Assembly (NCBI GenBank): GCA_046758705.1
Contig: JBHIAT010000085.1
Location: 1-14,776, forward strand
From: Candidatus Bipolaricaulia bacterium
Lineage (GTDB): Bacteria; Bipolaricaulota; Bipolaricaulia; JBHIAT01
DNA length: 14,776 nt
Direction of reading: 5' to 3'
Positions 1-13,008 of this stretch are shown here, one piece after another. Position 1 is the first letter of the stretch. Each line of letters begins with the position of its first letter. Position numbers and translations under genes: made by a program. The notes below the pieces were generated by a model, which made no database searches, had not been told where the DNA came from, and saw nothing but the letters and a program-made list of their open reading frames with translations.

Positions 1-1
1 A

Positions 2-1165
2 AAGCAAACGCAGAACCGTGAGAGAGATCTGGAGCTGATGTTCCGATTGCTCCAGAAAGGAAGCTCCGACGCCGAACGGCGGATCGTCGAGGCGAAGTTC
101 GAATTGGTACAAGCGGTCGCTGCGGAGCTTTCCGGCTTGAGCCAACCATCGGATGAACTGATCCAGGCCGGCTATATCAGCCTATTAAACGCCATCCACA
201 GTTTCAATCCCTCTCAGAAAGGTGGATTCGGCTGGTTCGACAACTATGCGACCCTCCTGATCCAGGAGGGGATCCGGCGCCACCTTCAGGAAAAACCGTC
301 CGATGAGTTCCCTGAGTGGATACAGATGCTCAGTGGGAAGGTGAGGATCGCCATCGCTGCCTTCTTCGAGGAACATAGTCGATTCCCGTCGGTCGCCGAG
401 CTCTCCAATGAGCTCAACATCAAGCAAGCAGGGATTCTGGAGATCCTCAAAGCCGGGGGGGCAGAGGAGATCGACGCCGATAAGATCCGGAGCAAACGAC
501 CTAGGACGTTCAAACTCTCTATCGAGGACATGATCCGGATCGCAAGAGCCATCGAGAAGGTCTCTAAGGTTCAGCGGACGGTGGTTCAGAGGCTGTTGCG
601 CATCGGCAAATCCGAGGCGACCGAAGCGGATGGATCTCAGGTGAACGAGCCGGACGAAGGCAGTCATGACGAACGCAAGTATCTGGAGCAGTTGGAGCGG
701 GAGCTCGATCACCTGCGCAACTTCATCACCGCGATCGATACCATAAATACCGATACCGATACCGATACCGATATCCATGAGGAAGCCAGGATTCAAAAAG
801 AAGATGTAACCAACCGGAAGTTGTTTTTCAATTTGTATCAGGAGTACCAGGAGCAGGGGCAGAAATTGACCTCTCTCCAGTTCAAACAGTGGTCCAGAAA
901 ACGGATCGAGGCGCTTAAAGGGCGACAGATTCAATGGTGGGGACAAGTCTTAGATGTGCATGAAATGGACGGGGGAATCCGAATCGACGTTCAGGCGTTA
1001 CCCACCGTCCACAACGTACATCTCTATCTCAAACTACCGATGGACCGGCTTGAGGAGGTGCTGGAGCAGGAAAGAGGTGCACTCACCATCTTTAGGGGTG
1101 TGATCAGCCAGATCCAGAGTGAACCATTTGCTATGACGTTGACCGATGTGGAATTTGCTGAATAA
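2..1165 (+). CDS. Sigma-70 family (SigB/SigF/FliA-like) protein, probably 5'-partial; regions 2 and 3 present, region-4 HTH apparently absent, C-terminal coiled coil plus OB-fold-like domain
   Basis: Frame is open from nt 2 (KQTQNRERDLELM...), so the ATG at 38 may not be the true start. Region 2-like DELIQAGYISLLNAIHSFNP...FDNYATLLIQEGIRRHLQE; region 3-like PEWIQ...RFPSVAELSNELNI; start of region 4 IEDMIRIARAIEKVSKVQRTVV, followed by unrelated sequence. Confidence 0.75.
   Translation, partial: KQTQNRERDLELMFRLLQKGSSDAERRIVEAKFELVQAVAAELSGLSQPSDELIQAGYISLLNAIHSFNPSQKGGFGWFDNYATLLIQEGIRRHLQEKPSDEFPEWIQMLSGKVRIAIAAFFEEHSRFPSVAELSNELNIKQAGILEILKAGGAEEIDADKIRSKRPRTFKLSIEDMIRIARAIEKVSKVQRTVVQRLLRIGKSEATEADGSQVNEPDEGSHDERKYLEQLERELDHLRNFITAIDTINTDTDTDTDIHEEARIQKEDVTNRKLFFNLYQEYQEQGQKLTSLQFKQWSRKRIEALKGRQIQWWGQVLDVHEMDGGIRIDVQALPTVHNVHLYLKLPMDRLEEVLEQERGALTIFRGVISQIQSEPFAMTLTDVEFAE
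747..773 (+). repeat. Hexanucleotide tandem repeat (ATACCG)x4.5 encoding TDTDTDTD
   Basis: ATACCG ATACCG ATACCG ATACCG ATA read directly from the sequence; in frame, in the linker before the C-terminal domain. Confidence 0.95.
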
Positions 1166-1193
1166 CGTATCTCTTACCGTAAAAGCACATTAA

Positions 1194-2687
<1,494 letters not shown>

Positions 2688-2763
2688 TGAGCATGTCGTG
2701 ATGGGTGAATGCTGAAGCGTATCCATTGCAGCCCATCGGGTTATCGGATATATTAAGGTCGCT

Positions 2764-4497
2764 ATGGCGAATCGGATCTTTAAGGCAGTTATGTCCTTAG
2801 GGGTGCTGTTGGCAATCGTCGCTGCCCTGTCTGTCAGCTTCGGACGGTTGGTCTGGGAACGTGAGTACAAGGACGTCGGAATCACCATCGAATACAAGGA
2901 CGTGGTAAAACTCTCCTCCAAACACGGCTATCCCGATGGGGAATTACTGTTCCAGTTGCGCGAGCGGAAGGTCGATTCGCTCACCCTCTATCCGGTGGAG
3001 CTGGAGGAATTTGCAGCACTGCTCACGCCGGTGGAGCTGGAGATGGAGGAGGAGGAAAAGGGAGGACCGCTCGTCGGCAGGTTCTTCGAGAGCGATGTGA
3101 CGAAGTTGCGTGCGATGGGGTTTGGGATCGTCCTCCGGCCGATCAATTTCCAACCTCCCACGAGCGATCCCGTGTTCTTCGAAAGATACCTGGAAAGACT
3201 GGGCGACCTCGAGCCACGGCAGATCATCTTCGGGGGCCGGGAGGTGCTGGGGTACCCGGATTACCTCGAGGAGACCACCGCTTTTCTCAAGGAACATAGC
3301 AGCCTGGTGGGCCACATAGAGTTCGGGAATCAGTTAGGAATGGGAACTCTGGTCGATGGGGTAACCGATCAATTCGTCCGGGTCCATAGCATCACCCGAG
3401 ACGAGATGAAGTCGATCACGATCGATGATGCGCTGGCCCGCTGGGAACGGGCGGTAGAGGAAAGGAACATCCGCAGGCTATACGTACGGTTCTTCGAGGA
3501 TAAGACGGTGGAGGAAAACCTCAGCTACGTGGAGAGTCTGGTGAATCGTCTGAATGATAGCGGTTTCCAGGTAGGTAGGGTGAGCCTGGCTGAGCCATTC
3601 GAGGTGCAAGATCGGTGGTTGCTCGTCATGATGATCGGTGCGGTCAGCTTGGGCATGTTGAACGTGAATCGGGTCTGGAAGCCGCAGTTCCTTATCAACC
3701 TGCTGCTGTGGGTGATAGGGATAGCCATCGTCATCACTGGGTTGAGGTTGGACACGCTGCTCACCCGCCAGGCGGTTGCCCTGGCGCTTGCCTTGCTGAT
3801 CCCGGTCTCCGCGTTCCTCTATCTGCGTCCCGTTCTTATAGGCGAGCGGGAGACGATCGGAAGCGCACTGGGGGGTGGGATGTTGGTCTTGGTCTACTCG
3901 TCTCTCATCGTAGTCTTGGGAGGGATCGGGATTGGCGCGCTGCTGAGCGGGGAGGAGTTCTTCCTGAAGCTCAGGGAGTTTCGCGGCGTCAAACTGTCGT
4001 TGGTTGCCCCGTTGGTGTTGGTGTTCATCACCTATTTCATCGTGGTCGGCAGGGACCGGTTCAAAGCGTTTGTGACCAGGCAGATCAGGATGGGCGATCT
4101 GATCCTGATCGGGCTGGGGGGGGCGGCCCTGGTGATGGTGGTGTTGCGCAGCGGAAATTTCTCGATCGTTCCGGTTCCCGAGTTGGAGGTGTTCTCCAGG
4201 CGTTTTCTGGAGGAATCCCTGTTCGCCAGGCCCCGGTTCAAGGAGTTCCTCTTCGGCCATCCGTTGCTGTTCCTGTGGGGAGGGGTGGGCTTCAGAAGCC
4301 TGCGCGACTATGATGTCATCGTGTTACTCCTCGGTATGATCGGCCAAGTCTCGATTATCAACACCTTCGCTCACCTGCACACTCCTCTGATCGTCTCACT
4401 GTCCAGGACGGCCATCGGGGTAGCGCTGGGAATCATCGTTGGGGTGATCCTGGTGGTGATCTTCAAGGAGGGTGAACGGTTTTGGACGAGGAGCTGA
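2764..4497 (+). CDS. DUF5693-like polytopic membrane protein (csaB-associated)
   Basis: N-terminal TM helix, an extracytoplasmic domain (RAVEERNIR), then multiple TM helices with FRGVKL, RPRFKEFLFGHP and SIINTFAHLHTP motifs; overlaps csaB, matching the usual pairing of this family. Confidence 0.8.
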   Translation: MANRIFKAVMSLGVLLAIVAALSVSFGRLVWEREYKDVGITIEYKDVVKLSSKHGYPDGELLFQLRERKVDSLTLYPVELEEFAALLTPVELEMEEEEKGGPLVGRFFESDVTKLRAMGFGIVLRPINFQPPTSDPVFFERYLERLGDLEPRQIIFGGREVLGYPDYLEETTAFLKEHSSLVGHIEFGNQLGMGTLVDGVTDQFVRVHSITRDEMKSITIDDALARWERAVEERNIRRLYVRFFEDKTVEENLSYVESLVNRLNDSGFQVGRVSLAEPFEVQDRWLLVMMIGAVSLGMLNVNRVWKPQFLINLLLWVIGIAIVITGLRLDTLLTRQAVALALALLIPVSAFLYLRPVLIGERETIGSALGGGMLVLVYSSLIVVLGGIGIGALLSGEEFFLKLREFRGVKLSLVAPLVLVFITYFIVVGRDRFKAFVTRQIRMGDLILIGLGGAALVMVVLRSGNFSIVPVPELEVFSRRFLEESLFARPRFKEFLFGHPLLFLWGGVGFRSLRDYDVIVLLLGMIGQVSIINTFAHLHTPLIVSLSRTAIGVALGIIVGVILVVIFKEGERFWTRS

Positions 4498-5666
4498 GTC
4501 AAGGGCAAGGCGAAGGGCAAGATCAAGAGCAGGAGCGCAACGCGGCGCAGGGCAAATTTCTGATCGTAGGGTACTATGGGTTCGGCAACTTCGGCGACGA
4601 GGCGATCCTGGCCAGCTTGGTGAGCGGCCTGTGCCTCCGATTCCCCGATGTCGAGCTGGTCATCCTGTCCAAAGACCCACAGGAGACGAGCGAACGGCAC
4701 GGAGTGCGGGCGATCAACCGCTGGAACCTGTTTTCCATCGTTCGAGAGTTGCGCAAGACCACGCTGTTCATCAGCGGGGGTGGCGGACTGCTGCAAGACA
4801 GCACCAGCCGCCGATCCCTCTGGTATTATCTGTCTTTGATCCTGCTCGCCCGCTTGTCCAGGAAACCGATCTTCTTGATCGGCCAGGGGATCGGTCCGAT
4901 CCGAAGCGAGCTGAACCGTCGGTTGACGGCGATCGTGCTGCGCTGGGTCGATTTCATCTCGGTGCGGGATGAAACCAGCCTATGGCTGTTAAGAGACTGG
5001 GGTGTGGACGAGGATCGACTGCTGCTCGGCGAGGACCTCGCTCTGTGCCTGGAGAACCGGGACGATGCGAAGGGATTAAGCCTGGGGTCCGCGGATGATA
5101 ACCGGAATCTGTTGGGTGTCGCGTTGAAGGAGGGCGCCCGGAATCAGGAACGGTTCACCCGTTCGATGGCCGAGGCTCTGGACGAGGCGAGCCGCCGTTG
5201 GGGGCTTCAGGTGGTGTTCTTCTCTACCTTTCCCGATCAGGATCTTAAGATCGCCGAGGAGATCCGTGACAGGATGCAGGAGCGAGCGTTCATCGTCAAC
5301 TCGGCACACCTATCGGTCCGGGAGATGATCAACCTGATCGATGAGGCCCGGATCGTTATCGGAACCCGGCTCCATGTGCTGGAGTTCGCCGCCCTCTCGG
5401 GAATCCCGTTCATCGCCCTCAGCTACGATCCGAAGGTGGATGCGTTCGTCGAACGCCTGGAACAGGCCTCGGATCTACAGATATCGCTCTGGAGCGTCGA
5501 TAGGATCGAAAGCGGGCAGATCATCCAGGAGCTCGGCAGGTTGATCGAACACGAACAGAATTACCGGGAGCGGTTAAAACACGGGGCTGAGTATTTGGGC
5601 CGATCGGTTCACAAAAGCTTCGAGACGCTATGCGAACGGATCTGGGAACGGATTCAAGTAGACTGA
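4482..5666 (+). CDS. csaB: Polysaccharide pyruvyl transferase CsaB
   Basis: GYYGFGNFGDEAIL, ISGGGGLLQDSTSRRSLWYY, GQGIGP, ISVRD, GTRLH and LSYDPKV motifs. TTG start preceded by AAGGAGGG. Confidence 0.9.
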   Translation: MDEELSQGQGEGQDQEQERNAAQGKFLIVGYYGFGNFGDEAILASLVSGLCLRFPDVELVILSKDPQETSERHGVRAINRWNLFSIVRELRKTTLFISGGGGLLQDSTSRRSLWYYLSLILLARLSRKPIFLIGQGIGPIRSELNRRLTAIVLRWVDFISVRDETSLWLLRDWGVDEDRLLLGEDLALCLENRDDAKGLSLGSADDNRNLLGVALKEGARNQERFTRSMAEALDEASRRWGLQVVFFSTFPDQDLKIAEEIRDRMQERAFIVNSAHLSVREMINLIDEARIVIGTRLHVLEFAALSGIPFIALSYDPKVDAFVERLEQASDLQISLWSVDRIESGQIIQELGRLIEHEQNYRERLKHGAEYLGRSVHKSFETLCERIWERIQVD

Positions 5667-5676
5667 ACCTGAACCG

Positions 5677-5877
5677 ATGAAATGGCTGTTGATTGCCGTT
5701 CTGCTTGTCTTGGTGATCGTCTTGGGTCTCCCGGTCCTGAGCGGTGAAGTCGAGTGGTTAAAGAGCTTCGAACCTGAAGAGCTCGGATCGTTCTTCTTTG
5801 GAGTGCTCGACTACTGGATAACGGTCGTCAAGACGATATTGAGGCTTCAGCAGGATCAGGAGCCTCAAGTGATCTAA
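5677..5877 (+). CDS. Small hypothetical membrane/secreted protein (66 aa)
   Basis: ATG start, hydrophobic N-terminus (MKWLLIAVLLVLVIVLGLPVL) and an amphipathic second helix; fills the gap between csaB and rsmH almost exactly. Confidence 0.6.
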   Translation: MKWLLIAVLLVLVIVLGLPVLSGEVEWLKSFEPEELGSFFFGVLDYWITVVKTILRLQQDQEPQVI

Positions 5878-5908
5878 TTCTAGATTGGAGTCGGAATCCC
5901 CTAACGGC

Positions 5909-6850
5909 ATGGAACATCAACCGGTCCTGCTCGACCGAGCGATCGAGCTTCTCGATGTCAAATCGGATGGGATCTATGTGGACGCCACCGTCGGAGGCGG
6001 CGGCCATGCACTAGAGATCGCCAGGCGGCTCTCCGTTTCCGGGAGGCTCATCGGGATCGATCTGGATCGCGACGCACTAGAGATCGCTGCAACCCAACTC
6101 AAACCGTTCTCCGAATGGGTGACCCTCATCCACGGGAACTTCGCTGAACTTGACAGGTTGCTTGATCGGGTCGGCGTAGACCGGGTCGATGGGATCTTGT
6201 TCGATCTCGGCCTGTCCTCGATGCAGCTCGATACCCCTGAGCGAGGGTTCAGCTTCCGATTCGATGCGAAGCTCGACATGCGCATGGACCCAAATGGCAA
6301 CCCGCTGACGGCCGAGGAAGTGATCAATACTGATTCCCAAGCTGAATTGGAACGGGTGTTTCGGGAGTCCGGTGAAACGCGCTGGGGAAAACGGATTGCG
6401 GAGGCGATCGTCAAAACGAGAAAAACGGAGAGAATCGAGACGACCGGCCAGCTGGTTGAGACGGTGAAGAGTGCGATCCCAACGGGATATCAGCGCAATA
6501 TGAACATCCATCCGGCTACCAAAATCTTCCAAGCACTTCGGATTATCGTCAATAATGAGTTGACAAACCTGCGACGAGGGATTATAATAGGCTCCCATTG
6601 TCTCAAGGTGGGAGGGGTCATAGTGGTCATCGCCTATCATTCCCTTGAGGACCGGATTGTCAAAGGGATCTTCGTCGAGCAGGCGAGCGATTGCATCTGT
6701 CCACCGGAGTGGCCGGTCTGTCGTTGTGATAAGGAGCGAGAGGGAGAGATTCTCACCAAACGACCGATTCAGCCCGACGCTGAGCAGGTGGCCTGTAACC
6801 CCCGATCGAGAAGTGCGAGGCTCAGAGCGATCCGGAAGCTGATCGGTTGA
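5909..6850 (+). CDS. rsmH: 16S rRNA m4C1402 methyltransferase RsmH (MraW)
   Basis: HQPVLL, VDATVGGGGHA, DLGLSSMQLD..ERGFSF, LDMRMD, HPATKIFQALRIIVNNEL, YHSLEDRIVK, NPRSRSARLR. ATG 5909 fits family length; TTG 5885 is an alternative start. Confidence 0.97.
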   Translation: MEHQPVLLDRAIELLDVKSDGIYVDATVGGGGHALEIARRLSVSGRLIGIDLDRDALEIAATQLKPFSEWVTLIHGNFAELDRLLDRVGVDRVDGILFDLGLSSMQLDTPERGFSFRFDAKLDMRMDPNGNPLTAEEVINTDSQAELERVFRESGETRWGKRIAEAIVKTRKTERIETTGQLVETVKSAIPTGYQRNMNIHPATKIFQALRIIVNNELTNLRRGIIIGSHCLKVGGVIVVIAYHSLEDRIVKGIFVEQASDCICPPEWPVCRCDKEREGEILTKRPIQPDAEQVACNPRSRSARLRAIRKLIG

Positions 6851-6884
6851 GCAAAGCCAACGTTTAGAACAGGAGGTAGGTGGG

Positions 6885-7355
6885 GTGGCGCTTAGAAGGG
6901 CCAAGGGGCTGAGTCTCACTATCACCCAGCAGACTTACACAACTGGGGTCTCAATCGCTACGGAGCGAGAGCAACATGAGGCGTTTCTCACCCCAGCGAG
7001 AACAGTTGGCATCATTCTGCTCATCCTCGTGACCCTGGGGTGCCTCATCTACCTGTGGCAGTCGTGGGAGCATCGACAGCTGGTGCAACGGGTGCGGATC
7101 GGTCAGGAAAGTTTGACCAGACTGCAAGCGGAGCACCAGCAGTTGGAATTCGAACTCGCCCAGTACCACTCCCTGGATCGGATCGAGCGGATCGCTCGGG
7201 AGAGGTTGGGAATGGCAGAGCCGGAGACAGTGGTGTACGTCCCGCGCCCCCTGTTTCCGCTCCTGGCCTCCAAGGGGACGCAAGCGGAACCTGCTCGTTC
7301 ATCTGAGGTCGAGGCCGAGGCTGAGGTCGCAATCCAGCCTGGGTCGGAACGCTGA
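6885..7355 (+). CDS. ftsL: Cell division protein FtsL / septum formation initiator family
   Basis: Single TM segment, then a coiled coil and SLDRIERIARERLGM motif; canonical position between rsmH and ftsI; AGGAGG RBS 8 nt before GTG; TGATG overlap with ftsI. Confidence 0.85.
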   Translation: MALRRAKGLSLTITQQTYTTGVSIATEREQHEAFLTPARTVGIILLILVTLGCLIYLWQSWEHRQLVQRVRIGQESLTRLQAEHQQLEFELAQYHSLDRIERIARERLGMAEPETVVYVPRPLFPLLASKGTQAEPARSSEVEAEAEVAIQPGSER

Positions 7356-9085
7356 TGAGATGGAAGGTGCTATCGATCGCCACCCTGGTGATACTCGCTT
7401 CCGGGGTCGTCTTGGGAAGACTCGTCTATCTCCAGGTGTTCCAACATGAATTGTGGAGCAGTCGGGCGGAGGCGATCCAAACCCAGGTCATCCGGGTTCC
7501 TGCGAATCGGGGGCGACTGTTCGACCGGAACGGCATACTCCTGGCCGACAACCTGAGAACCATCGATATCGCCGTCGATCCGTCCTACCTGACCGAGCCT
7601 GAACTGCTCAAACCGATTCTGAGCCAGGAACTCGGACTCGATGCTGCCTACCTGAACGCCCAGCTGTCCCGGGAGGGCCGGTTCGCATGGATTCGTCGTC
7701 AGGTGCCCCTGGCGATGGCAGACCGAATCCGACGTAGGGCGGAGATCAGCGGGATCCGGGGACTCATCTTCCTCGACTCGACAAAACGGATCTACCCCCA
7801 AGGGCAATTGGCAGCCAACGTGATCGGGTTCGCCGGGGTCGACAATCAGGGGCTGGAAGGGATCGAATTCGGATTGGACGAGTTGTTGGACGGCGAGGAC
7901 CGGGTCGCCCGGTTGGTGAGCTACACGAGTGAGATCGCCGAGGTCATCGAAACGGGCCGGCCGGGCCACGATGTCTACCTGACCCTGGACAGCCAGATCC
8001 AGCATATCGCCGAGAGCGAAGTGGATCGGGGAGTGAACGAATTTCTGGCCCGGCACGGGTTCGCCGTGGTGATGAACGTCAATACCGGTGAGATCCTGGC
8101 GATGGCTCAGGACGCCCGCCCCGATCCGAACGACTTTCAGAGCACCTCCCCCGATCAGTGGCGTAACCGCGCGATCTCCTACATGTTCGAACCCGGTTCT
8201 TCGTTAAAGATATTCGCCGGGCTGGCCGCGCTTGAGAACGGGGCCATCGAACTCGATGAGCAGGTCAGCGGGGACGAGCCGGTGGTGATCGCCGGACACG
8301 CCTTCCACAACGCTGAAAACATCAACTACGGGATGGTCACCCTGAGAGATATCATCCAGTTGTCGATCAACACCGGGATGATCCGGGTGGCTCAACAGCT
8401 CGGCCCGGAACCCCTGTATGCGTTCTTGAAGCAGCTGAGATTTGGGGAGCGGACCGGTCTGAACGGTCTGAGCGGGGAGGCTGCCGGAATGCTGCGTCCC
8501 GTCGAAAATTGGTCAGAGCTCGCCATCGGTGCGGTCCCCATTGGTCAGTCGATCGCGGTCACCGGCCTTCAGTTGATCACCCGAGCGGCGGCGATCGCTA
8601 AGGATGGTCTGCTTCTCAAACCGCAACTCGTCCTCCGGGTCGAGGATCGTGAAGGGAACCTGGTCCAGCGCGCCCGACCCGAGGTGCTCGAACGGGTGAT
8701 CTCCGAGGAAAATGCCCGGATCATGAAGCAGATCATGCGTCAGGCGGTGATGGACGGCACCGGGCGCTGGGCCGAGGTGGAGGGCTTCGAAGTGGCGGGC
8801 AAGACCGGCACCGCCCAGAAGGCGAGCCCTGAAGGCGGCTACGCCGAAGGGAAGTTCACGTCGCTGTTCGTCGGTTTTTTCCCGGCGTCACATCCGCAGC
8901 TGGCCATACTGGTTGTCTTGGATGAGGTTCAGGTGAAACCGTTCTGGGGCGGCCAGACGGCCGGGGTGATCTTCCAGCGCATGGCAAGACGAATCGTCGA
9001 ACGTAAGCGGATTCCACCGGTCGTGGTCGCAGACGTTGAGCCGGTGCAACCAGAACCACTCCTCTTCGCCCCGCTCCTACCCTGA
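7355..9085 (+). CDS. ftsI: Class B penicillin-binding protein, FtsI/PBP3-like transpeptidase
   Basis: N-terminal TM, RGRLFDRNG, RIYPQG, GLEGIE, LTLDSQIQ; catalytic motifs SxxK (EPGSSLK), SxN (SIN) and KTG (GKTGTAQK); no PASTA domain visible. Confidence 0.92.
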   Translation: MRWKVLSIATLVILASGVVLGRLVYLQVFQHELWSSRAEAIQTQVIRVPANRGRLFDRNGILLADNLRTIDIAVDPSYLTEPELLKPILSQELGLDAAYLNAQLSREGRFAWIRRQVPLAMADRIRRRAEISGIRGLIFLDSTKRIYPQGQLAANVIGFAGVDNQGLEGIEFGLDELLDGEDRVARLVSYTSEIAEVIETGRPGHDVYLTLDSQIQHIAESEVDRGVNEFLARHGFAVVMNVNTGEILAMAQDARPDPNDFQSTSPDQWRNRAISYMFEPGSSLKIFAGLAALENGAIELDEQVSGDEPVVIAGHAFHNAENINYGMVTLRDIIQLSINTGMIRVAQQLGPEPLYAFLKQLRFGERTGLNGLSGEAAGMLRPVENWSELAIGAVPIGQSIAVTGLQLITRAAAIAKDGLLLKPQLVLRVEDREGNLVQRARPEVLERVISEENARIMKQIMRQAVMDGTGRWAEVEGFEVAGKTGTAQKASPEGGYAEGKFTSLFVGFFPASHPQLAILVVLDEVQVKPFWGGQTAGVIFQRMARRIVERKRIPPVVVADVEPVQPEPLLFAPLLP

Positions 9086-9099
9086 GCAGCGCTCCGAAA

Positions 9100-9539
9100 A
9101 TGGTCTTATTCGTTGACGACGGTGGTGTGCTGAACGATAACACCCGGCGGTCACTGCAGTGGCAGCGGTTGCTGGGAGAGTTTTTTCCACCGATCCTGGG
9201 TGGCACACCCGAATCCTGGGCCGAGGCGAACCCTCAAGCGAATTAGAGGGCTATCTGGAAGGAATGGGCGTGCGAGATTGCTTCGGGCGCCTCTACGGAC
9301 CCGACCTGGTGGATACGCTGAAACGGGGTCCCGAGTACTATGTGCGAATCTTTACCGACGTAAGGGTATCTCCGGCCGATGCCCTGGTGATTGACGATCA
9401 ACCTCTCTTCATCAATTGGGCCGCCCAAGCCGGCGCGAAAACGGTGCTGGTTGGCCCGGCGGCCGACGAGGAGTGCAAGCCGGGCCTGATCATCGCCAGC
9501 CTGGCTGAACTGCCCCAGGCTCTGGAAACTATCGGGTGA
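9100..9539 (+). pseudogene. HAD-family hydrolase pseudogene (internal deletion with frameshift)
   Basis: An unlisted ORF at 9100-9246 (MVLFVDDGGVLNDN...WAEAN) holds HAD motif I. A different frame from ~9225 holds GEPSSELEGYL...LKRGPEYY...ALVIDD...AGAKTVLV (motifs III and IV). Most of the cap domain and motif II are missing. Confidence 0.8.
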
Positions 9540-9579
9540 AGGCTCATGAAGGAACGAGGAACTTAAGGAGGTGAAGCGT

Positions 9580-10470
9580 ATGGCAATGACAGCGCAGGAT
9601 AGAGTCATGACGGCTCTGCAACATAAGGAGCCCGATCGTGTTCCTTTTGACTTGGATGGAACAACGGTGTCAGGGATTCATCGCATCGCGTATCGCAACC
9701 TGCTGTCCCATATCGGCATGGACGAAGAAAGCGAGATTTCCGTTTATGATATCGTCACCCACAGAAATCAGGTGGAAGCGCTGTCCCAAAAGACCGGCTG
9801 TGCATTGACCCTGGTGGGAAGCGGTTCGGGAATCTTCGAATATGCATGCTGGATAAGAGGATTTAAAGAATTCTATTTAGATTTAGCGAGGGATCCGTCT
9901 TTAGCTACAAGTCTGTTGGACAAAATCACCGATTATAAGATAAGGATTTGGGAACTTCTGCTGGATGAGCTCGGTCATCTGGCTCAAATAGCCCAGGAGG
10001 CAGATGATCTCGCCGGTCAAGTCGATTTATTAATATCTCCCGACATGTACCGCCAGCTCATCAAACCACGACATAAAAGAGTTTTCGAGTTTATCAAGAA
10101 GAACGCTCCAAAACCGATGTACGTGTTTCTCCATTCTGATGGAGCGATTTACGACTTGATCCCTGACCTGATTGAGGCAGGCGTCCAGATCTTGAATCCC
10201 GTGCAAGTCAGTGCAGCGAGAATGGATACCCGGCGACTCAAAAAGGAATTCGGAGATGTGCTGTGCTTTTGGGGAGGCGGGGTCGATACCCAGAACGTGT
10301 TACCCCGAGGCACCCCGGATGAAGTCAGGGATGAAGTGAGAAGGCACCTCGATGATCTGGCCCCTGGAGGGGGTTACATCTTCGGCGCGATCCATAATAT
10401 TCAGCCGGACGTGCCCCCGGAGAACATCATCGCCATGTGGGAAACTTTACAGGAGTATGGCAGGTATTAA
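9580..10470 (+). CDS. Uroporphyrinogen decarboxylase-like (UroD/MtaA/CmuA family) protein, probably internally deleted
   Basis: MTAQDRVMTALQHKEPDRVPFD, ADDLAGQ, ISPDMYRQLIKP, FLHSDGAI, NPVQVSA, FWGGGVDTQ, GGGYIFGAIHNIQPDVPPENI. AAGGAGGTG RBS favours ATG 9580. Only 296 aa. Confidence 0.85.
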   Translation: MAMTAQDRVMTALQHKEPDRVPFDLDGTTVSGIHRIAYRNLLSHIGMDEESEISVYDIVTHRNQVEALSQKTGCALTLVGSGSGIFEYACWIRGFKEFYLDLARDPSLATSLLDKITDYKIRIWELLLDELGHLAQIAQEADDLAGQVDLLISPDMYRQLIKPRHKRVFEFIKKNAPKPMYVFLHSDGAIYDLIPDLIEAGVQILNPVQVSAARMDTRRLKKEFGDVLCFWGGGVDTQNVLPRGTPDEVRDEVRRHLDDLAPGGGYIFGAIHNIQPDVPPENIIAMWETLQEYGRY

Positions 10471-10473
10471 GTT

Positions 10474-12030
10474 CTAGAATTCGAGTGGTTCACCCTCTTG
10501 GGGAAGACGTACTTCGCAAAGGTCCCCCAGCTCTTTGGAATAGATTTCCGGATACTCGGTATGGATGGGGATTAACGTCTTAGGCTCGATCGCCCGGGCG
10601 AATTGGAGCAGCTCGGGGCCGCTCGCGTGCCCGCTGGCATGGATCTGGATCGGCTGGTACCCCTGCTCAGGATTGATGCCAAAGTGCTTCAGCCAATTGT
10701 GCAGCCGCTCGTCGGAAAGCTCCATCTCTTCGTTGAACGGCTCGGTGCTGGCCCGGATATAGCTCGAACCGGCCGGCGGCTTAATGTCCAGTAGGTTATT
10801 GAAACGCCAGTAGTCGAGCTGGAACACGTAGCGCTCCGGCTCACGGTTTAGATCCAGTGCGGTGACTCCGCGCTCTAAATGCGGGGTCTCAGGTTTCTTC
10901 CCTTTGAGCCAATGGGCCTGATATCCTGCCTTGTACTTGTCGTAGACATAGTCAGCAGGGCTATAGAGCAGGCTACGGCTCCGCTCCAGATAGACGTAAA
11001 CCCCGGGCTCGGATTCCAAATCGTAGCCGAGCTGATGTAGGAGATAGGCAAGTCGGGGGAAAATGACCAGCTCGCGACCTACCGCCTCTGCCGCCTCTTT
11101 CATCGTTTCGTAGCGCTCCACGTCCTTCCAACGGAAGCCGATCATCGCTAGACCTTGCGTCTGGTGGATGGCTCGGACAAGCTCTTCAAGGACGCGTGTC
11201 TCATCATCGTGTTCCTGGCTGGTGATGCGTGTCCCCTCAAGCAACAGCACATCCGGTTGGAGTCCTCCCAAGCTCTCTAACGGATCAAAATGCCAGCGGC
11301 CGTGAAAGCGTATGTCACCGGAATAGACGACCGTCTGGCCGTCAGCCCGGATCACAAAGGCGACCGAACCGGGAACCGAGTGACCGACGGCTACGGGTTG
11401 GACGGTGATCGCCGAGTTCTCTTGTAGTGTGAACGGCTGACCGGGCTCAAACAGGTGGATGTGGCGGGGCTCCTCGTCCCCGGCGGCGATCTTAGGCGCA
11501 CCGGGGAAGAAGCCGCCCTTATTGGGTTGCAACACTCGTCGGCTGATGCGCAGCACGTCCCGTTCACAACCGCTATAGTTGCCGACAGAGACAGCCGCCT
11601 CAAGCAGGGTATGCGTCTGAGGCGAGCAGTAGATCGGAAGGTGACCGAGAAAGCCGATCAGGCCAAAGTGGTCATCATGACCGTGGGTCAGCAACAGGGC
11701 ATCGACCGGTGGTTTGCCACGGTCTCGCTGGTAATCTTCGGCGCATTGGACCTCGATCTGCCAGAGCGGGGCACTGCGACCGAGCAGATCGGGGTCTCCC
11801 AAAGGGGTCAATGCATCTTCGCGATAGAGACCGTCGACACGGGGCAAGATGCCTAACCGGAGGTAGTCACAGAGTTGTGAATTGGTGCGCGGGGCCAGAT
11901 ACTCTTCGTAGAAGCGTTCCCTGCATTTGAAGGATACACCAAAATCGAGCAGGACTCTTCCGGAGGGGAACTCGACCAGGATCTTGTTGCCACCGATCTC
12001 ATTGACCCCACCATAGCAGGTAATCTTCAT
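10474..12030 (-). CDS. Metallo-beta-lactamase fold hydrolase, beta-CASP / RNase J-like nuclease
   Basis: GGVNEIGGN, LLDFG, THGHDDH (HxHxDH), GHSVPGS, YSGDIR, HASGHAS and IPIHTE motifs. Confidence 0.85.
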   Translation of the reverse strand: MKITCYGGVNEIGGNKILVEFPSGRVLLDFGVSFKCRERFYEEYLAPRTNSQLCDYLRLGILPRVDGLYREDALTPLGDPDLLGRSAPLWQIEVQCAEDYQRDRGKPPVDALLLTHGHDDHFGLIGFLGHLPIYCSPQTHTLLEAAVSVGNYSGCERDVLRISRRVLQPNKGGFFPGAPKIAAGDEEPRHIHLFEPGQPFTLQENSAITVQPVAVGHSVPGSVAFVIRADGQTVVYSGDIRFHGRWHFDPLESLGGLQPDVLLLEGTRITSQEHDDETRVLEELVRAIHQTQGLAMIGFRWKDVERYETMKEAAEAVGRELVIFPRLAYLLHQLGYDLESEPGVYVYLERSRSLLYSPADYVYDKYKAGYQAHWLKGKKPETPHLERGVTALDLNREPERYVFQLDYWRFNNLLDIKPPAGSSYIRASTEPFNEEMELSDERLHNWLKHFGINPEQGYQPIQIHASGHASGPELLQFARAIEPKTLIPIHTEYPEIYSKELGDLCEVRLPQEGEPLEF

Positions 12031-12213
12031 CTTGCTACATATACATTTGCATATTTAGTGCTCATCCGTCAAACAGCCAGTAGTAGAGCTTGGAGGTAAC
12101 AAGGTTATCAGGGGTTAACGTCGTTCTATAGCCATGGCCCTCGTCCATGAGCTTCCCAAGCCTGCCACTTTGACCGGAAGCGCCATAAAGAAGAACCGCC
12201 TCCGCCTTATTAT

Positions 12214-12531
12214 CGGTCAATACACCGGACTTCAGTCCGCGTGGACTTTCTCCTCTTTCCATGGTATAATGATCACAGATCTTTGACAACGTATGGGGTT
12301 GTTGCCGCAACCCTGAGCAACGTAAAACGTTGTGGGTATAGCCAGGTGCATTTTGCCAGCGTTTTGCTGTTCAGCGAAACAGAAGCTAACAGCCGCGAAG
12401 CCTGGCCTAAAGAAACTAAAACGTTGTGTGTGAACTGGCCGGGCGCGGCCAGCGTGGAGGCGTGAACCGCTGCGAGAGCAAGTTCCGCCTGTGAAACGAG
12501 AAGCCCCGTACTTTAGTGCGGGGAGCGTCAC
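12214..12531 (+). mobile_element. Non-autonomous IS200/IS605-family miniature element (no tnpA/tnpB)
   Basis: Left-end imperfect hairpin CACCGGAC-TTCA-GTCCG(C)GTG (12223-12243) preceded by AATA, with TTAT at 12210-12213. Right-end hairpin CCCCGTAC-TTTA-GTGCGGGG (12504-12523) preceded by GAAG and ending in TCAC (12528-12531). No terminal inverted repeats or target duplication, as expected for this family. The left boundary is inferred. Confidence 0.8.
12242..12270 (+). promoter_or_regulatory. Sigma-70 promoter with extended -10 inside the element left end
   Basis: TGGACT-17 nt-TATAAT, with TG at 12262-12263 giving TGnTATAAT. Confidence 0.75.
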
Positions 12532-12551
12532 GAGGGTTACCCCTCGGGAAC
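12277..12551 (+). ncRNA. Candidate TnpB-type omegaRNA/reRNA-like structured RNA plus ~20-nt flank-derived guide
   Basis: Successive stems: GGGTTG/CAACCC, CAACGT/ACGTTG, GCCAGG/CCTGGC enclosing GTTTTGCT/AGCGAAAC, CTGGCCG/CGGCCAG, AGGCG-GAAC-TGC[GAGA]GCA-GTTC-CGCCT, then the right-end hairpin and TCAC. Both ends are inferred. Confidence 0.6.
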
Positions 12552-12956
12552 CACGCCGAGCTGTTGCATCATGCCCAGGAAGTCGAACTCGCCCCAGCGT
12601 TCCACGGCCTTGCCGCCTTCGATGCGGATGATGTCGATCCCCGTCATCGCCACCTGCTTACCGGTCGCAGGAATGCCTTGAAACTCACCTTGGTGTGTGC
12701 CGCTCAATGTCAGGCGGGTCGTAACCTTGTCCCCTTCGGCAATCATGTCTTCAATCGTGAAGTGTAAGTCGGGGAAGGAGACGAGGATCTGTGCAAAGAT
12801 TTGTTTGACGCCCTCAAGGCCGGGTGCCTGTCCGGGATTGGGATTGTGATCGACAAAGCCAGCGCCGATAAACTCGTCTAATACGTCCACATTCCTCTGG
12901 CTCAGAACCTCCTCGTAGAAACGGCGGGTCTTGGCCTTGTTTTCTTCTGTTGACAT
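12537..12956 (-). CDS. Ester cyclase / SnoaL-like (NTF2-fold) protein
   Basis: MSTEENKA...FPDLHFTIEDMIAEGDKV...GTHQGEFQGIPATGKQV...GKAVERW...MMQQLG; AAAGGAGG RBS. Confidence 0.92.
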   Translation of the reverse strand: MSTEENKAKTRRFYEEVLSQRNVDVLDEFIGAGFVDHNPNPGQAPGLEGVKQIFAQILVSFPDLHFTIEDMIAEGDKVTTRLTLSGTHQGEFQGIPATGKQVAMTGIDIIRIEGGKAVERWGEFDFLGMMQQLGVVPEG

Positions 12957-12990
12957 GGGATGGCCTCCTTTGACATTTTGTCTCAGGATA

Positions 12991-13008
12991 TACCTAGAGT
13001 TACCTAGA
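12991..13008 (-). promoter_or_regulatory. Direct-repeat operator candidate upstream of the ester cyclase gene
   Basis: TACCTAGA-GT-TACCTAGA, two perfect 8-mers with a 10-bp period. On the - strand they fill the spacer of a possible TTGCGT-18 nt-TATCCT promoter. Confidence 0.5.

Follow-up and report, generated by a model that had tools for sequence, protein, structure and literature searches.

A multi-copy, protein-less IS200/IS605 element with a predicted TnpB omegaRNA scaffold and a conserved 5' RNA part in a Candidatus Bipolaricaulia genome

The window analysed here is the whole 14,776-nt stretch of contig JBHIAT010000085.1 (GCA_046758705.1), from a Candidatus Bipolaricaulia bacterium. Between two genes on its minus strand lies a 321-bp sequence that is a non-autonomous, protein-less derivative of the IS200/IS605 family (PATE). 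The metallo-beta-lactamase-fold gene lies about 180 nt beyond its left end, and the stop codon of the SnoaL-like gene is only 6 nt from its right end. The flanking genes, the element and the motifs at its ends are as follows.

10474..12030, minus strand: flanking gene for a metallo-beta-lactamase-fold protein with an RMMBL domain
12207..12210, plus strand: TTAT, TnpA insertion target and predicted TnpB TAM, in the flank outside the element
12211..12531, plus strand: protein-less IS200/IS605 element (PATE), 321 bp, from copies and the lack of Pfam and TnpB blastx matches
12219..12222, plus strand: AATA directly 5' of the left hairpin foot, read in the sequence
12223..12243, plus strand: left-end subterminal hairpin with a TTCA loop, the same in 10/10 left ends
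12500..12503, plus strand: GAAG directly 5' of the right hairpin foot, read in the sequence
12504..12523, plus strand: right-end hairpin, also the last scaffold stem, from the fold and compensatory changes
12528..12531, plus strand: TCAC, right-end cleavage motif and final bases of the element, at 10/10 right junctions
12537..12956, minus strand: flanking gene for a SnoaL-like protein (Pfam PF07366, E 3.2e-43)

The original prediction described two hairpins with TTCA and TTTA loops, TTAT outside the left one and TCAC closing the right one, and all of these are present. The left hairpin (CACCGGAC / TTCA / GTCCGCGTG) has eight pairs with one C bulged, and the right one (CCCCGTAC / TTTA / GTGCGGGG) has eight pairs, one of them T.G; folded as single-stranded DNA they give z scores of -2.42 (5/200 shuffles as good) and -1.53 (15/200), respectively. 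In IS608 the tetranucleotide 5' of the hairpin foot pairs with the cleavage site, and by the same rule AATA would presumably pair with the TTAT cleavage site and GAAG with TCAC. GAAG and TCAC are common to the mini-element and the aligned right ends of resident IS605 elements (in the context GGAAGC on contig C198), and the right hairpin shows compensatory changes between sub-families, for example CCCC/GGGG versus CCAC/GTGG. This hairpin is also constrained at the DNA level by TnpA. Taken alone, the hairpins are weak evidence for an element, and it is the copies that are decisive.

BLAST of the element against its own genome returned six complete copies that are 99.7-100% identical (the window on C85, and C63, C183, C65, C279 and C42), together with four left-end pieces (C122, C251, C59, C58) and four right-end pieces (C220, C171, C155 and a second C183 site) at contig ends; the copy number in the assembly is at least ten. 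In three DNA runs the word depth of short contigs of the element was 143-162x, against 8-12x for the flank. The expected sharp boundaries with differing flanks are seen at every junction: the left end begins TTATTAT after unrelated sequence in 10/10 cases, with TTAT always ahead of the junction in the window sub-family, and the right end reads ...GAGCGTCAC before unrelated sequence in 10/10. Flanks of the copies are unrelated and carry no target duplication, and the two ends of the element are not inverted copies of each other, that is, there are no terminal inverted repeats.

One boundary had to be moved. A start at 12214 had been proposed, and a second TTAT does lie at 12210-12213; the left junctions of other sub-families (TTAT/TCATTC..., TTAT/ACCTTC..., where the slash is the junction; the C120/C45/C80 and C106 sub-families) and of the tnpB element on C185 have only TTAT in common with those of the window sub-family, and the element therefore most likely starts 3 nt further left, at 12211. 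An empty site would then read ...CCGCCTTAT joined to GAGGG..., in longer form ...CCGCCTTAT joined to GAGGGTTACC.... Such an allele had also been anticipated, and no contig of the four DNA runs placed on 11700-13000 joins across the element. The search did return four joints, all of them within the SnoaL-like gene; their shorter sides measure 20-29 nt, and they resemble matches to a paralogue or to other organisms.

The claim that no transposase or TnpB is encoded between the ends also holds. Neither of the two internal open reading frames (99 aa on the minus strand, 74 aa on the plus strand) has a Pfam match, and when the element was compared by blastx with the open frames surrounding the 23 resident TnpB hits, no match was better than E 0.2. 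The PATEs of Haloquadratum walsbyi are reportedly also small, non-autonomous, gene-less derivatives of IS200/IS605 with subterminal palindromes; they are archaeal and are said to have been described before omegaRNAs were known, and their likeness to the window element is one of description.

A gene-less element of this kind could arise by recent internal deletion of a tnpB element, leaving decayed coding sequence inside. Internal deletion does occur in the family, as the C80 element truly derives in this way from a C120-type mini-element, and in tnpB elements the tnpB reading frame ends within the region that corresponds to the last ~95 nt. The interior, however, has the null blastx result just given, nothing in any tnpB locus corresponds to its 5' part (see below), homology to tnpB elements begins abruptly at the first scaffold hairpin, and 1-2-nt indels between sub-families break every reading frame. 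These observations contradict the decayed-tnpB reading, which we regard as very improbable.

Potential partners are plentiful in the genome, which holds 23 PF07282 and six Y1_Tnp (PF01797) matches. A tnpA/tnpB element with the same ends had been expected. Identical ends were not found, in that no tnpA- or tnpB-bearing element of the assembly has the same left end, while related ends do exist: the nearest tnpB right ends, on C185 and C274, are 74-76% identical over 95 nt. The C185 element carries a frame with HTH_OrfB_IS605, OrfB_IS605 and TNB domains, and its left end follows TTAT and resembles that of the C120-type mini-elements. From these features the best candidate for a trans partner would be the TTAT-type TnpB that C185 encodes in full length, or the related one on C274. 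Among the tnpA elements, the one on C207 also inserts at TTAT and the one on C27 has a similar start, CGGTCAA, and hairpins whose loops are TTCA and TTTA; the ends of both differ from those of the mini-element. A left-end variant on C115, 93% identical, runs into sequence missing from the assembly, where its 30-letter loose end finds no continuation.

The interior of the element, and the flank that follows it, can be divided into the following predicted RNA features.

12242..12270, plus strand: sigma-70-type promoter-like site (TGGACT, 17 nt, TG-n-TATAAT), directed towards the right end
12276..12418, plus strand: 5' RNA part, 143 nt, specific to gene-less elements, from covariance model R1
12419..12531, plus strand: omegaRNA core scaffold, 113 nt, ending at the right-end cleavage site, from homology and covariation
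12421..12425, plus strand: 5' strand (ACGTT) of a pseudoknot-like closing helix, positions -111 to -107, pairing with 12524-12528
12524..12528, plus strand: 3' strand (AGCGT) of the pseudoknot-like helix, positions -8 to -4
12532..12551, plus strand: predicted guide GAGGGTTACCCCTCGGGAAC, flank sequence, by position

The last ~100 nt of the element align with the region directly after the HRDHNAA codons of resident tnpB genes, and nhmmer likewise matches the scaffold to the 3' ends of these genes. A covariance model built from gene-less copies only (R2) recovers the tnpB 3' ends on C274 (71.8 bits) and C185 (61.3 bits), and also on C198, C33 and C184, each of the five adjoining a PF07282 hit. 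In 15 model-aligned rows, an alignment that is fitted to the model and so leans towards structure, 94.3% of cells are paired, as against 71.2 +/- 1.4% in shuffles and 32-39% when the partners are slid, and 28/35 pairs have changed on both sides. Compensatory changes between sub-families extend to helices 2-5, beyond the TnpA hairpin, and part of this covariation may have arisen in tnpB-linked ancestors rather than in gene-less copies. When the right ends of mini-elements and tnpB elements were aligned by MAFFT alone, RNAalifold returned only 10 pairs because of misalignment, and the model-guided alignment was used instead. A match to Rfam omegaRNA or IS605 models had been foreseen as well; the whole window has none at gathering score, and at E up to 10 the region 11950-12800 yields two chance-level hits only, to CRISPR-DR57 and HgcC.

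The geometry of the predicted scaffold can be set beside that of the ISDra2 omegaRNA of Deinococcus radiodurans as given in its cryo-EM description (PMC10097598), where a 116-nt scaffold has a pseudoknot of -5..-3 with -103..-105, a stem 2 of -84..-81 with -35..-32, and a UUUA tetraloop at -20..-17. In the 113-nt scaffold of the window, -8..-4 would pair with -111..-107, stem 2 would be formed by -79..-77 with -36..-34, stem 3 falls at the matching position, and the loop (TTTA in the DNA, 12512-12515) occupies the same positions, -20 to -17; in all of these the likeness is by position only. Both have a further 5' region beyond the core, which in ISDra2 lies outside the protein-bound core. They differ in the TAM, predicted to be TTAT in the window and TTGAT in ISDra2, and in the nature of the 5' region, which in ISDra2 is tnpB coding sequence and in the window is non-coding, conserved and preceded by its own promoter-like site. 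Homology, conserved fold and this geometry together support the reading of the right end as a TnpB omegaRNA scaffold.

The promoter that was thought to be retained corresponds to the promoter-like site behind the left hairpin, which has 10/12 consensus positions and an extended -10 TG; the region holds two such sites, where 0.5 +/- 0.7 would be expected. The other sub-families have CTTGACTT...TATAAT/C at this position although their left hairpins differ. Similar sites (TTGAC.../TAnAnT) also follow the left-end regions of three tnpA-bearing elements and of the C185 tnpB element, and their position in these full-length elements matches that behind the left hairpin of the mini-element.

That parent-type left ends also carry such sites would fit an inert miniature transposon, whose ends work for TnpA while promoter and scaffold are parental leftovers and no functional guide RNA is made; nor does the 99.7-100% identity of the copies help to decide, as it shows only a recent burst. 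Yet sub-families with an overall identity of 75-89% and differing left hairpins have retained the promoter-like hexamers and the fold, the scaffold helices beyond the TnpA hairpin have acquired compensatory changes, and the interior is conserved above the ends, when a passive miniature transposon should show the opposite. We therefore consider an inert element improbable.

Since the scaffold ends at the TCAC junction, the guide position falls in the flank, and 12532-12551 is predicted by position to serve as the guide. This sequence is antisense to the stop-codon region of the SnoaL-like gene, and the genome has a single match to its first 16 nt. The same is true for 21/22 guides tested; the exception, that of C185, matches a second time where contig C107 begins, and there too the same bases of the right end come immediately before it. 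This second match seems to be the C185 locus again, at a contig end. Across the 22 guides, secondary targets in the genome gave no sign of TldR-like regulatory targeting.

The original reading, of a mobile guide-RNA cassette without a protein gene, is thus supported by the copies, the non-coding interior, the homology and fold of the scaffold and the promoter-like site. We put at roughly 75% the probability that the element is a standalone omegaRNA-carrying PATE moved by TnpA in trans and serving a TnpB in trans. Mobility signatures, copy number, scaffold homology, a conserved fold and a conserved promoter-like site are all present; for transcription, processing, TnpB loading, cleavage and the identity of the mobilising TnpA, we infer the following course from the sequence. 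A Y1 TnpA encoded elsewhere would move the element as single-stranded DNA, inserting it 3' of TTAT and cutting after TCAC. The promoter behind the left hairpin would transcribe about 255 nt, the 143-nt 5' part followed by the 113-nt core scaffold, and transcription would continue past the right end into the flank, so that each insertion would have a different 16-20-nt guide. A TnpB acting in trans, perhaps that of C185 or the C274 relative, would load this RNA, and the complex would cleave a site that is still vacant, recognised as TTAT with the guide match behind it; this may favour retention of the element, as the break would be repaired from a filled copy.

No tnpB-linked omegaRNA region contains the 5' part, which also shows little covariation. 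A simple omegaRNA model leaves it unexplained, and the published TnpB model does not need it. All 12 sites in its own genome that match R1 are in protein-less copies, and a filter-free scan of six tnpB loci gave a best match of 6 bits (E 2.2). It is the best-conserved segment of the family, at 77-92% identity between sub-families whose left ends differ, and the interior is thus better conserved than the ends. The last 95 nt of the mini-elements, meanwhile, group with different tnpB lineages: those of the C159 element are 87% identical to the C14 and C33 tnpB elements and 62-64% identical to other mini-elements, and those of the C244 element are 84% identical to the C274 tnpB element. In the family member on C144 the 5' part is joined straight to the right hairpin, without a core scaffold.

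The first 64 nt of the 5' part recur in four gene-less elements of G063, another genome of the same class, with 81-91% identity between the two genomes, although the G063 elements differ from the window family in target motif, right-end motif and 3' part. The same pattern is repeated within G063, where the 5' parts of its two element types are 88-95% identical, the left ends 57-71% and the 3' parts 50-53%. The G063 assembly has no PF07282 or PF01797 match. These related elements in an assembly with no detectable TnpB or TnpA run counter to the standalone-omegaRNA reading, as do the C144 element that lacks the core scaffold and the lack, in the data above, of a tnpA/tnpB element with the same left end and of an empty-site allele.

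All this raises the question of whether the selected unit may be the 5' part itself, as an RNA gene of its own (regulatory, structural, or a cis-controller of the scaffold) riding on interchangeable IS605 ends, with the scaffold serving only mobility and retention or being a passenger. The inside-out conservation, the mixed lineages of the 3' ends, the G063 elements and the C144 element speak for this reading. However, the 5' part matches no known RNA family and its structural covariation is weak (five pairs changed on both sides, 77/500 shuffles as good); no instance was found outside IS605 ends, and in 11/12 own-genome sites a complete scaffold lies directly downstream. G063, moreover, reaches a completeness of only 85%, and insertion sequences frequently drop out of assemblies; and only 2/151 genomes scored are R1-positive, so recent transfer could explain part of the similarity. 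On balance we think this alternative unlikely.

Under the standalone-omegaRNA reading, our guess is that the 5' part supports the production, stability or control of the RNA without a surrounding tnpB mRNA. One form of control is suggested by the minimum-free-energy fold, in which ACAACGU (12286-12292) is perfectly complementary to ACGUUGU (12421-12427), the segment that contains the 5' strand of the pseudoknot. A comparable arrangement has been described for the AmaTnpB mRNA (Nety et al. 2023, PMC10278001), whose cis-inhibitory region precedes the processed omegaRNA and has complementarity to the scaffold, though in the window family the pairing is no better than in shuffles (83.3% paired in six sub-family sequences; 343/500 as good), and a switch helix is a lead only. 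More broadly, the 5' part, above all its first 64 nt, could be a portable functional RNA module. On this view, recombination in two genomes of one class would have brought it together with ends, target motifs and scaffolds from three or four different IS605/TnpB lineages at least, and it would be more strongly constrained than the ends. We advance this tentatively, as a possibility that is probably wrong. Such a module would be either a lineage-independent accessory (a 5' stabiliser, a processing platform or a switch that masks the pseudoknot strand) or its own RNA gene with IS605 shells as vehicles.

Standalone omegaRNAs that undergo mobilisation and act in trans (Altae-Tran et al. 2021, cited after PMC10691335) and PATE-like protein-less IS200/IS605 elements of Geobacillus stearothermophilus that encode omegaRNAs (Meers et al. 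2023, preprint PMC10055086) are already in print, and the concept is not new. The window family resembles them in having gene-less left and right ends in multiple copies, TnpB-encoding elements in the same genome, and a right-end omegaRNA scaffold with its guide taken from the flank, and in that mobilisation by TnpA and use by TnpB in trans are presumed. It differs from these loci, as described in PMC10691335 and in the main text of PMC10055086, in its extra 143-nt 5' RNA part, which is conserved above the ends and found on ends and scaffolds of varied tnpB lineages. This combination looks like the new feature.

A plain standalone omegaRNA element would add little, because the kind is already in print. 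At least ten identical cassettes with ten different guides, alongside a full-length TTAT-type TnpB in the same genome, nevertheless make a clean natural test set, in which trans-loading and homing by gene-less elements become directly testable. The family is also built the wrong way round for a miniature transposon, with the interior 5' part conserved and the ends and scaffolds swapped. If the 5' part is functional, TnpB guide-RNA cassettes would include accessory RNA modules whose evolution and movement do not depend on the nuclease; this would bear on the origin of the tracrRNA-like and leader-like parts of Cas12 guide RNAs, and could provide a natural 5' module for expressing compact TnpB guides.

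The whole element had no DNA match in any of 40 relatives of the same class, and searches of genome_contigs and metagenome_contigs for a 22-nt core of the 5' part gave no exact match in either. A degenerate two-block pattern found nothing in metagenome_contigs and four loci in genome_contigs, all in one Bipolaricaulota MAG record. Twenty viral_contigs loci with a 17-nt degenerate core were rejected as chance hits, since none of the 20 matches R1 at E up to 1. When the 3' part of the G063 elements was compared with 184 genomes of the phylum, matches outside G063 were at most 37 nt long and consisted mostly of the right hairpin; the match in G054 lies at the end of a 380-aa TnpB frame, and that in G034 adjoins a pantothenate kinase gene and not a TnpB.

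Here we show that the window carries a non-autonomous, recently multiplied IS200/IS605 mini-element of 321 bp. The hairpins, loops, flanking tetranucleotides, TTAT and TCAC of the original prediction are all present where it placed them, as follows.

Features of the element and its left flank (window coordinates, plus strand)
12207-12210: TTAT, outside the left end
12211-12531: protein-less element
12223-12243: left hairpin, loop TTCA, with AATA immediately 5' of its foot
12242-12270: promoter-like site TGGACT-17-TG-n-TATAAT, behind the left hairpin
12276-12418: 5' RNA part, 143 nt, found in gene-less copies
12419-12531: 3' part, TnpB omegaRNA scaffold by homology and fold, 113 nt
12504-12523: right hairpin, loop TTTA, with GAAG immediately 5' of its foot
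12528-12531: TCAC, right-end junction

As single-stranded DNA the hairpins beat shuffles modestly (left, z -2.42, 5 of 200 shuffles equally good; right, z -1.53, 15 of 200). Such folds would be weak proof by themselves; the observation is settled by the copies in the genome. BLAST against the source assembly (3.70 Mb, 319 contigs, 93.9% complete) recovered six complete copies at 99.7-100% identity, in the window (contig C85) and on contigs C63, C183, C65, C279 and C42, and further partial copies at four contig ends stopping within the left end and four starting within the right end. All ten left junctions of window-type copies read TTATTAT preceded by unrelated sequence, and all ten right junctions close with GAGCGTCAC followed by unrelated sequence, with no target duplication at either; the sharp boundaries and differing flanks that the original prediction named as support are present. 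In three DNA runs containing the window, word depth on short contigs of the element is 143-162x versus 8-12x in the flanks, which fits at least a dozen copies, provided the short contigs derive from the source organism alone.

The first base 3' of TCAC is T in nine of the ten insertions and G in the window's copy, which suggests a target preference TTAT/T. In silico removal of the C63 copy (G000:C63:2111-2431) gives a 311-codon stop-to-stop frame across the junction, with 200 codons on its left side and 110 on its right, and this copy may interrupt a gene; the remaining five complete copies are apparently intergenic or at gene ends. The genome is rich in IS200/IS605 sequences, with 23 TnpB zinc-ribbon and six Y1 transposase matches, several at contig ends, and measures 3.7 Mb against 1.1-2.3 Mb in relatives of the same class.

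Diverged sub-families lie on C120, C45, C106, C244 and C159, together with an internally deleted copy (C80) and a chimera (C144). Their left ends differ in sequence, with junctions TTAT/TCATTC... (C120, C45, C80) and TTAT/ACCTTC... (C106), and TTAT, which also precedes the tnpB element on C185, is all they have in common with the window type there. Because TTAT is the sole shared left-junction sequence, the element most likely starts at 12211, 3 nt to the left of the boundary first proposed (12214), and the proposal of TTAT as insertion target and predicted TAM is upheld. The C80 copy (G000:C80:9239-9349) is a C120-type mini-element whose left end is fused directly to the 3' scaffold, without promoter and 5' part. 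C115 ends (G000:C115:11863-11923; window 12243) in a left-end variant that matches over 44 nt at 93% identity and then passes into different sequence, which runs off the contig. Three DNA runs show the same continuation as a loose end of 255 nt that the assembly lacks; it may be where the missing full-length relative (tnpA or tnpB) of the window's element begins.

Consistent with the predicted absence of coding sequence between the ends, neither of the two internal ORFs holds a Pfam domain, and blastx of the element against the open frames surrounding the 23 resident TnpB hits gave nothing below E 0.2. No terminator-like site is predicted downstream of the promoter-like site. Other sub-families carry CTTGACTT plus TATAAT/C at the matching position despite different hairpins, the tnpA-bearing elements on C27, C207 and C257 have a promoter-like TTGAC.../TAnAnT in the left-end region upstream of tnpA, and a promoter-like site also lies behind the left hairpin of the C185 tnpB element; judged from sequence, the site looks like an ordinary left-end promoter that has been retained. 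The RNA region between about 12276 and 12531 has a good predicted fold (-111.1 kcal/mol; z -3.29, one of 200 shuffles as good) and consists of two parts, 12276-12418 and 12419-12531, with different histories.

The core proposal, that the right end is a guide-RNA scaffold, is well supported by homology to tnpB 3' ends, by its fold and by an ISDra2-like layout. A mini-element profile matches the region immediately 3' of the zinc-ribbon and HRDHNAA codons in resident tnpB genes on C274, C185, C14, C33 and C198, and also remnants on C24 and C297. We built a covariance model of the scaffold, R2, solely from five gene-less copies; C274 reaches 71.8 bits and C185 61.3 bits, C198, C33 and C184 are also matched, and each of these matches adjoins a PF07282 hit. 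In a model-guided alignment of 15 rows, one a 23-nt partial match, 94.3% of scaffold cells are paired, versus 71.2 +/- 1.4% in shuffles and 32-39% with slid partners, and 28 of 35 pairs have changes on both sides, figures somewhat inflated by fitting the alignment to the structure. The layout compares as follows with the solved ISDra2 omegaRNA, as given in PMC10097598.

Scaffold layout, window element versus ISDra2 omegaRNA
Scaffold length: 113 nt; 116 nt
Pseudoknot: -8..-4 with -111..-107; -5..-3 with -103..-105
Stem 2: -79..-77 with -36..-34; -84..-81 with -35..-32
Next stem: long bipartite stem in matching position; bipartite stem 3
UUUA tetraloop: -20..-17 (window 12512-12515); -20..-17

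The 5' part belongs to gene-less copies only. All 12 matches in the genome to R1, a covariance model of this part, fall in such copies and none at the 23 tnpB loci, where a filter-free scan of six reached only 6 bits at best; homology between mini-elements and tnpB elements starts abruptly at the first scaffold hairpin. With 1-2-nt indels between sub-families and no blastx or Pfam signal, the 5' part is not coding. No other part of the family is as well conserved (77-92% identity between sub-families). The last 95 nt of the mini-elements group with different tnpB lineages: those of the C159 copy are 87% identical to the C14 and C33 tnpB elements versus 62-64% to other mini-elements, and those of the C244 copy 84% identical to the C274 tnpB element. 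The chimera (G000:C144:4464-4640) begins 3' of a TTAT, a short distance downstream of a coiled-coil-like ORF. Its 5' part runs straight into a right hairpin of the kind that the C207 tnpA+tnpB element carries, the two meeting at a shared GAAGCC, and the chimera has neither an omegaRNA core scaffold nor a recognisable left hairpin or promoter.

Structural covariation in the 5' part is weak, with two-sided changes in five pairs, a result matched by 77 of 500 shuffles, and the constraint looks to be at the sequence level as much as structural. The pseudoknot strand has a perfect complement in the 5' part, ACAACGU at 12286-12292. This pairing, which recalls the inhibitory mRNA region described by Nety et al. 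(PMC10278001), has no covariation support, whereas the closing helix and pseudoknot are kept at 97%. We can offer only candidate roles for the 5' part, as a 5' stabiliser or processing platform for guide RNA outside tnpB mRNA, or as a cis-control element.

R1 was used to score 151 genomes of the phylum, and the 5' part turned up in one more of them, G063, which belongs to the same class but a different family and has four copies. Scanning 185,579 species genomes for an exact pattern gave four loci, each in the same Candidatus Bipolaricaulota MAG, and JGI metagenomes scanned in this way gave none. The four G063 elements (loci L074-L077, also L079-L082) are diverged and gene-less, with a 64-nt 5' motif; these first 64 nt, at 81-91% identity, are all they have in common with the family described here, from which they differ in target (TCATC), left hairpins, 3' part and right end (closing GTTGAC). 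The pattern of conserved 5' part and variable ends repeats within G063, where identity is 88-95% in the 5' part, 57-71% in the left ends and 50-53% in the 3' parts between its two types. No TnpB or Y1 TnpA domain was detected in that assembly, which is 85% complete.

With its copies and junctions, retained promoter-like site and tnpB-homologous scaffold, the original observation is confirmed and its interpretation supported. A gene-less omegaRNA element as a kind is already in print: the introduction of PMC10691335 describes standalone omegaRNAs, mobilised, lacking effector and transposase, and shown to act in trans. In the portions of the literature covered, we found no account of a 5' module that is conserved, independent of the effector and common to such elements across different ends. 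This mosaic architecture, conserved inside out, appears to be the new feature and merits modest follow-up.

The element is shown to carry a conserved promoter-like site and a scaffold homologous to tnpB-linked omegaRNAs; the following model is inferred. TnpA supplied in trans would excise the top strand and insert it at TTAT; the left-end promoter would drive RNA through the scaffold into the flank, with the A-rich linker between the 5' and 3' parts a likely processing site; and a TTAT-type TnpB, such as that encoded on C185, would load this RNA and cut the vacant site. We found HTH, OrfB_IS605 and TNB domains in the C185 frame, and what we take to be the D, E and D motifs are readable in its translation. 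Such loading and cutting would correspond to the retention mechanism set out by Meers et al. (PMC10055086).

For 21 of 22 guides examined, the first 16 nt are unique in the genome; the exception, the C185 guide, matches once more where contig C107 starts. The same right-end bases immediately precede this second match, which looks to be the C185 locus again, at a contig end. None of the 22 hints at regulatory, TldR-like use. Next to the window's element is a SnoaL-like gene. Its stop codon is 6 nt away from the right end, and the predicted guide is antisense to the region of that stop. The 3' end of the SnoaL-like gene (window 12546-12600) is 77-91% identical to six places on C229, C110, C34 (twice), C24 and C69, a paralogous gene family unrelated to the element. 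Window 1-10470 holds ordinary housekeeping genes: a sigma-70-like fragment, a beta-eliminating lyase and a DUF5693 protein with polysaccharide pyruvyl transferase, then mraW, ftsL/divIC, a penicillin-binding transpeptidase and a URO-D-like gene.
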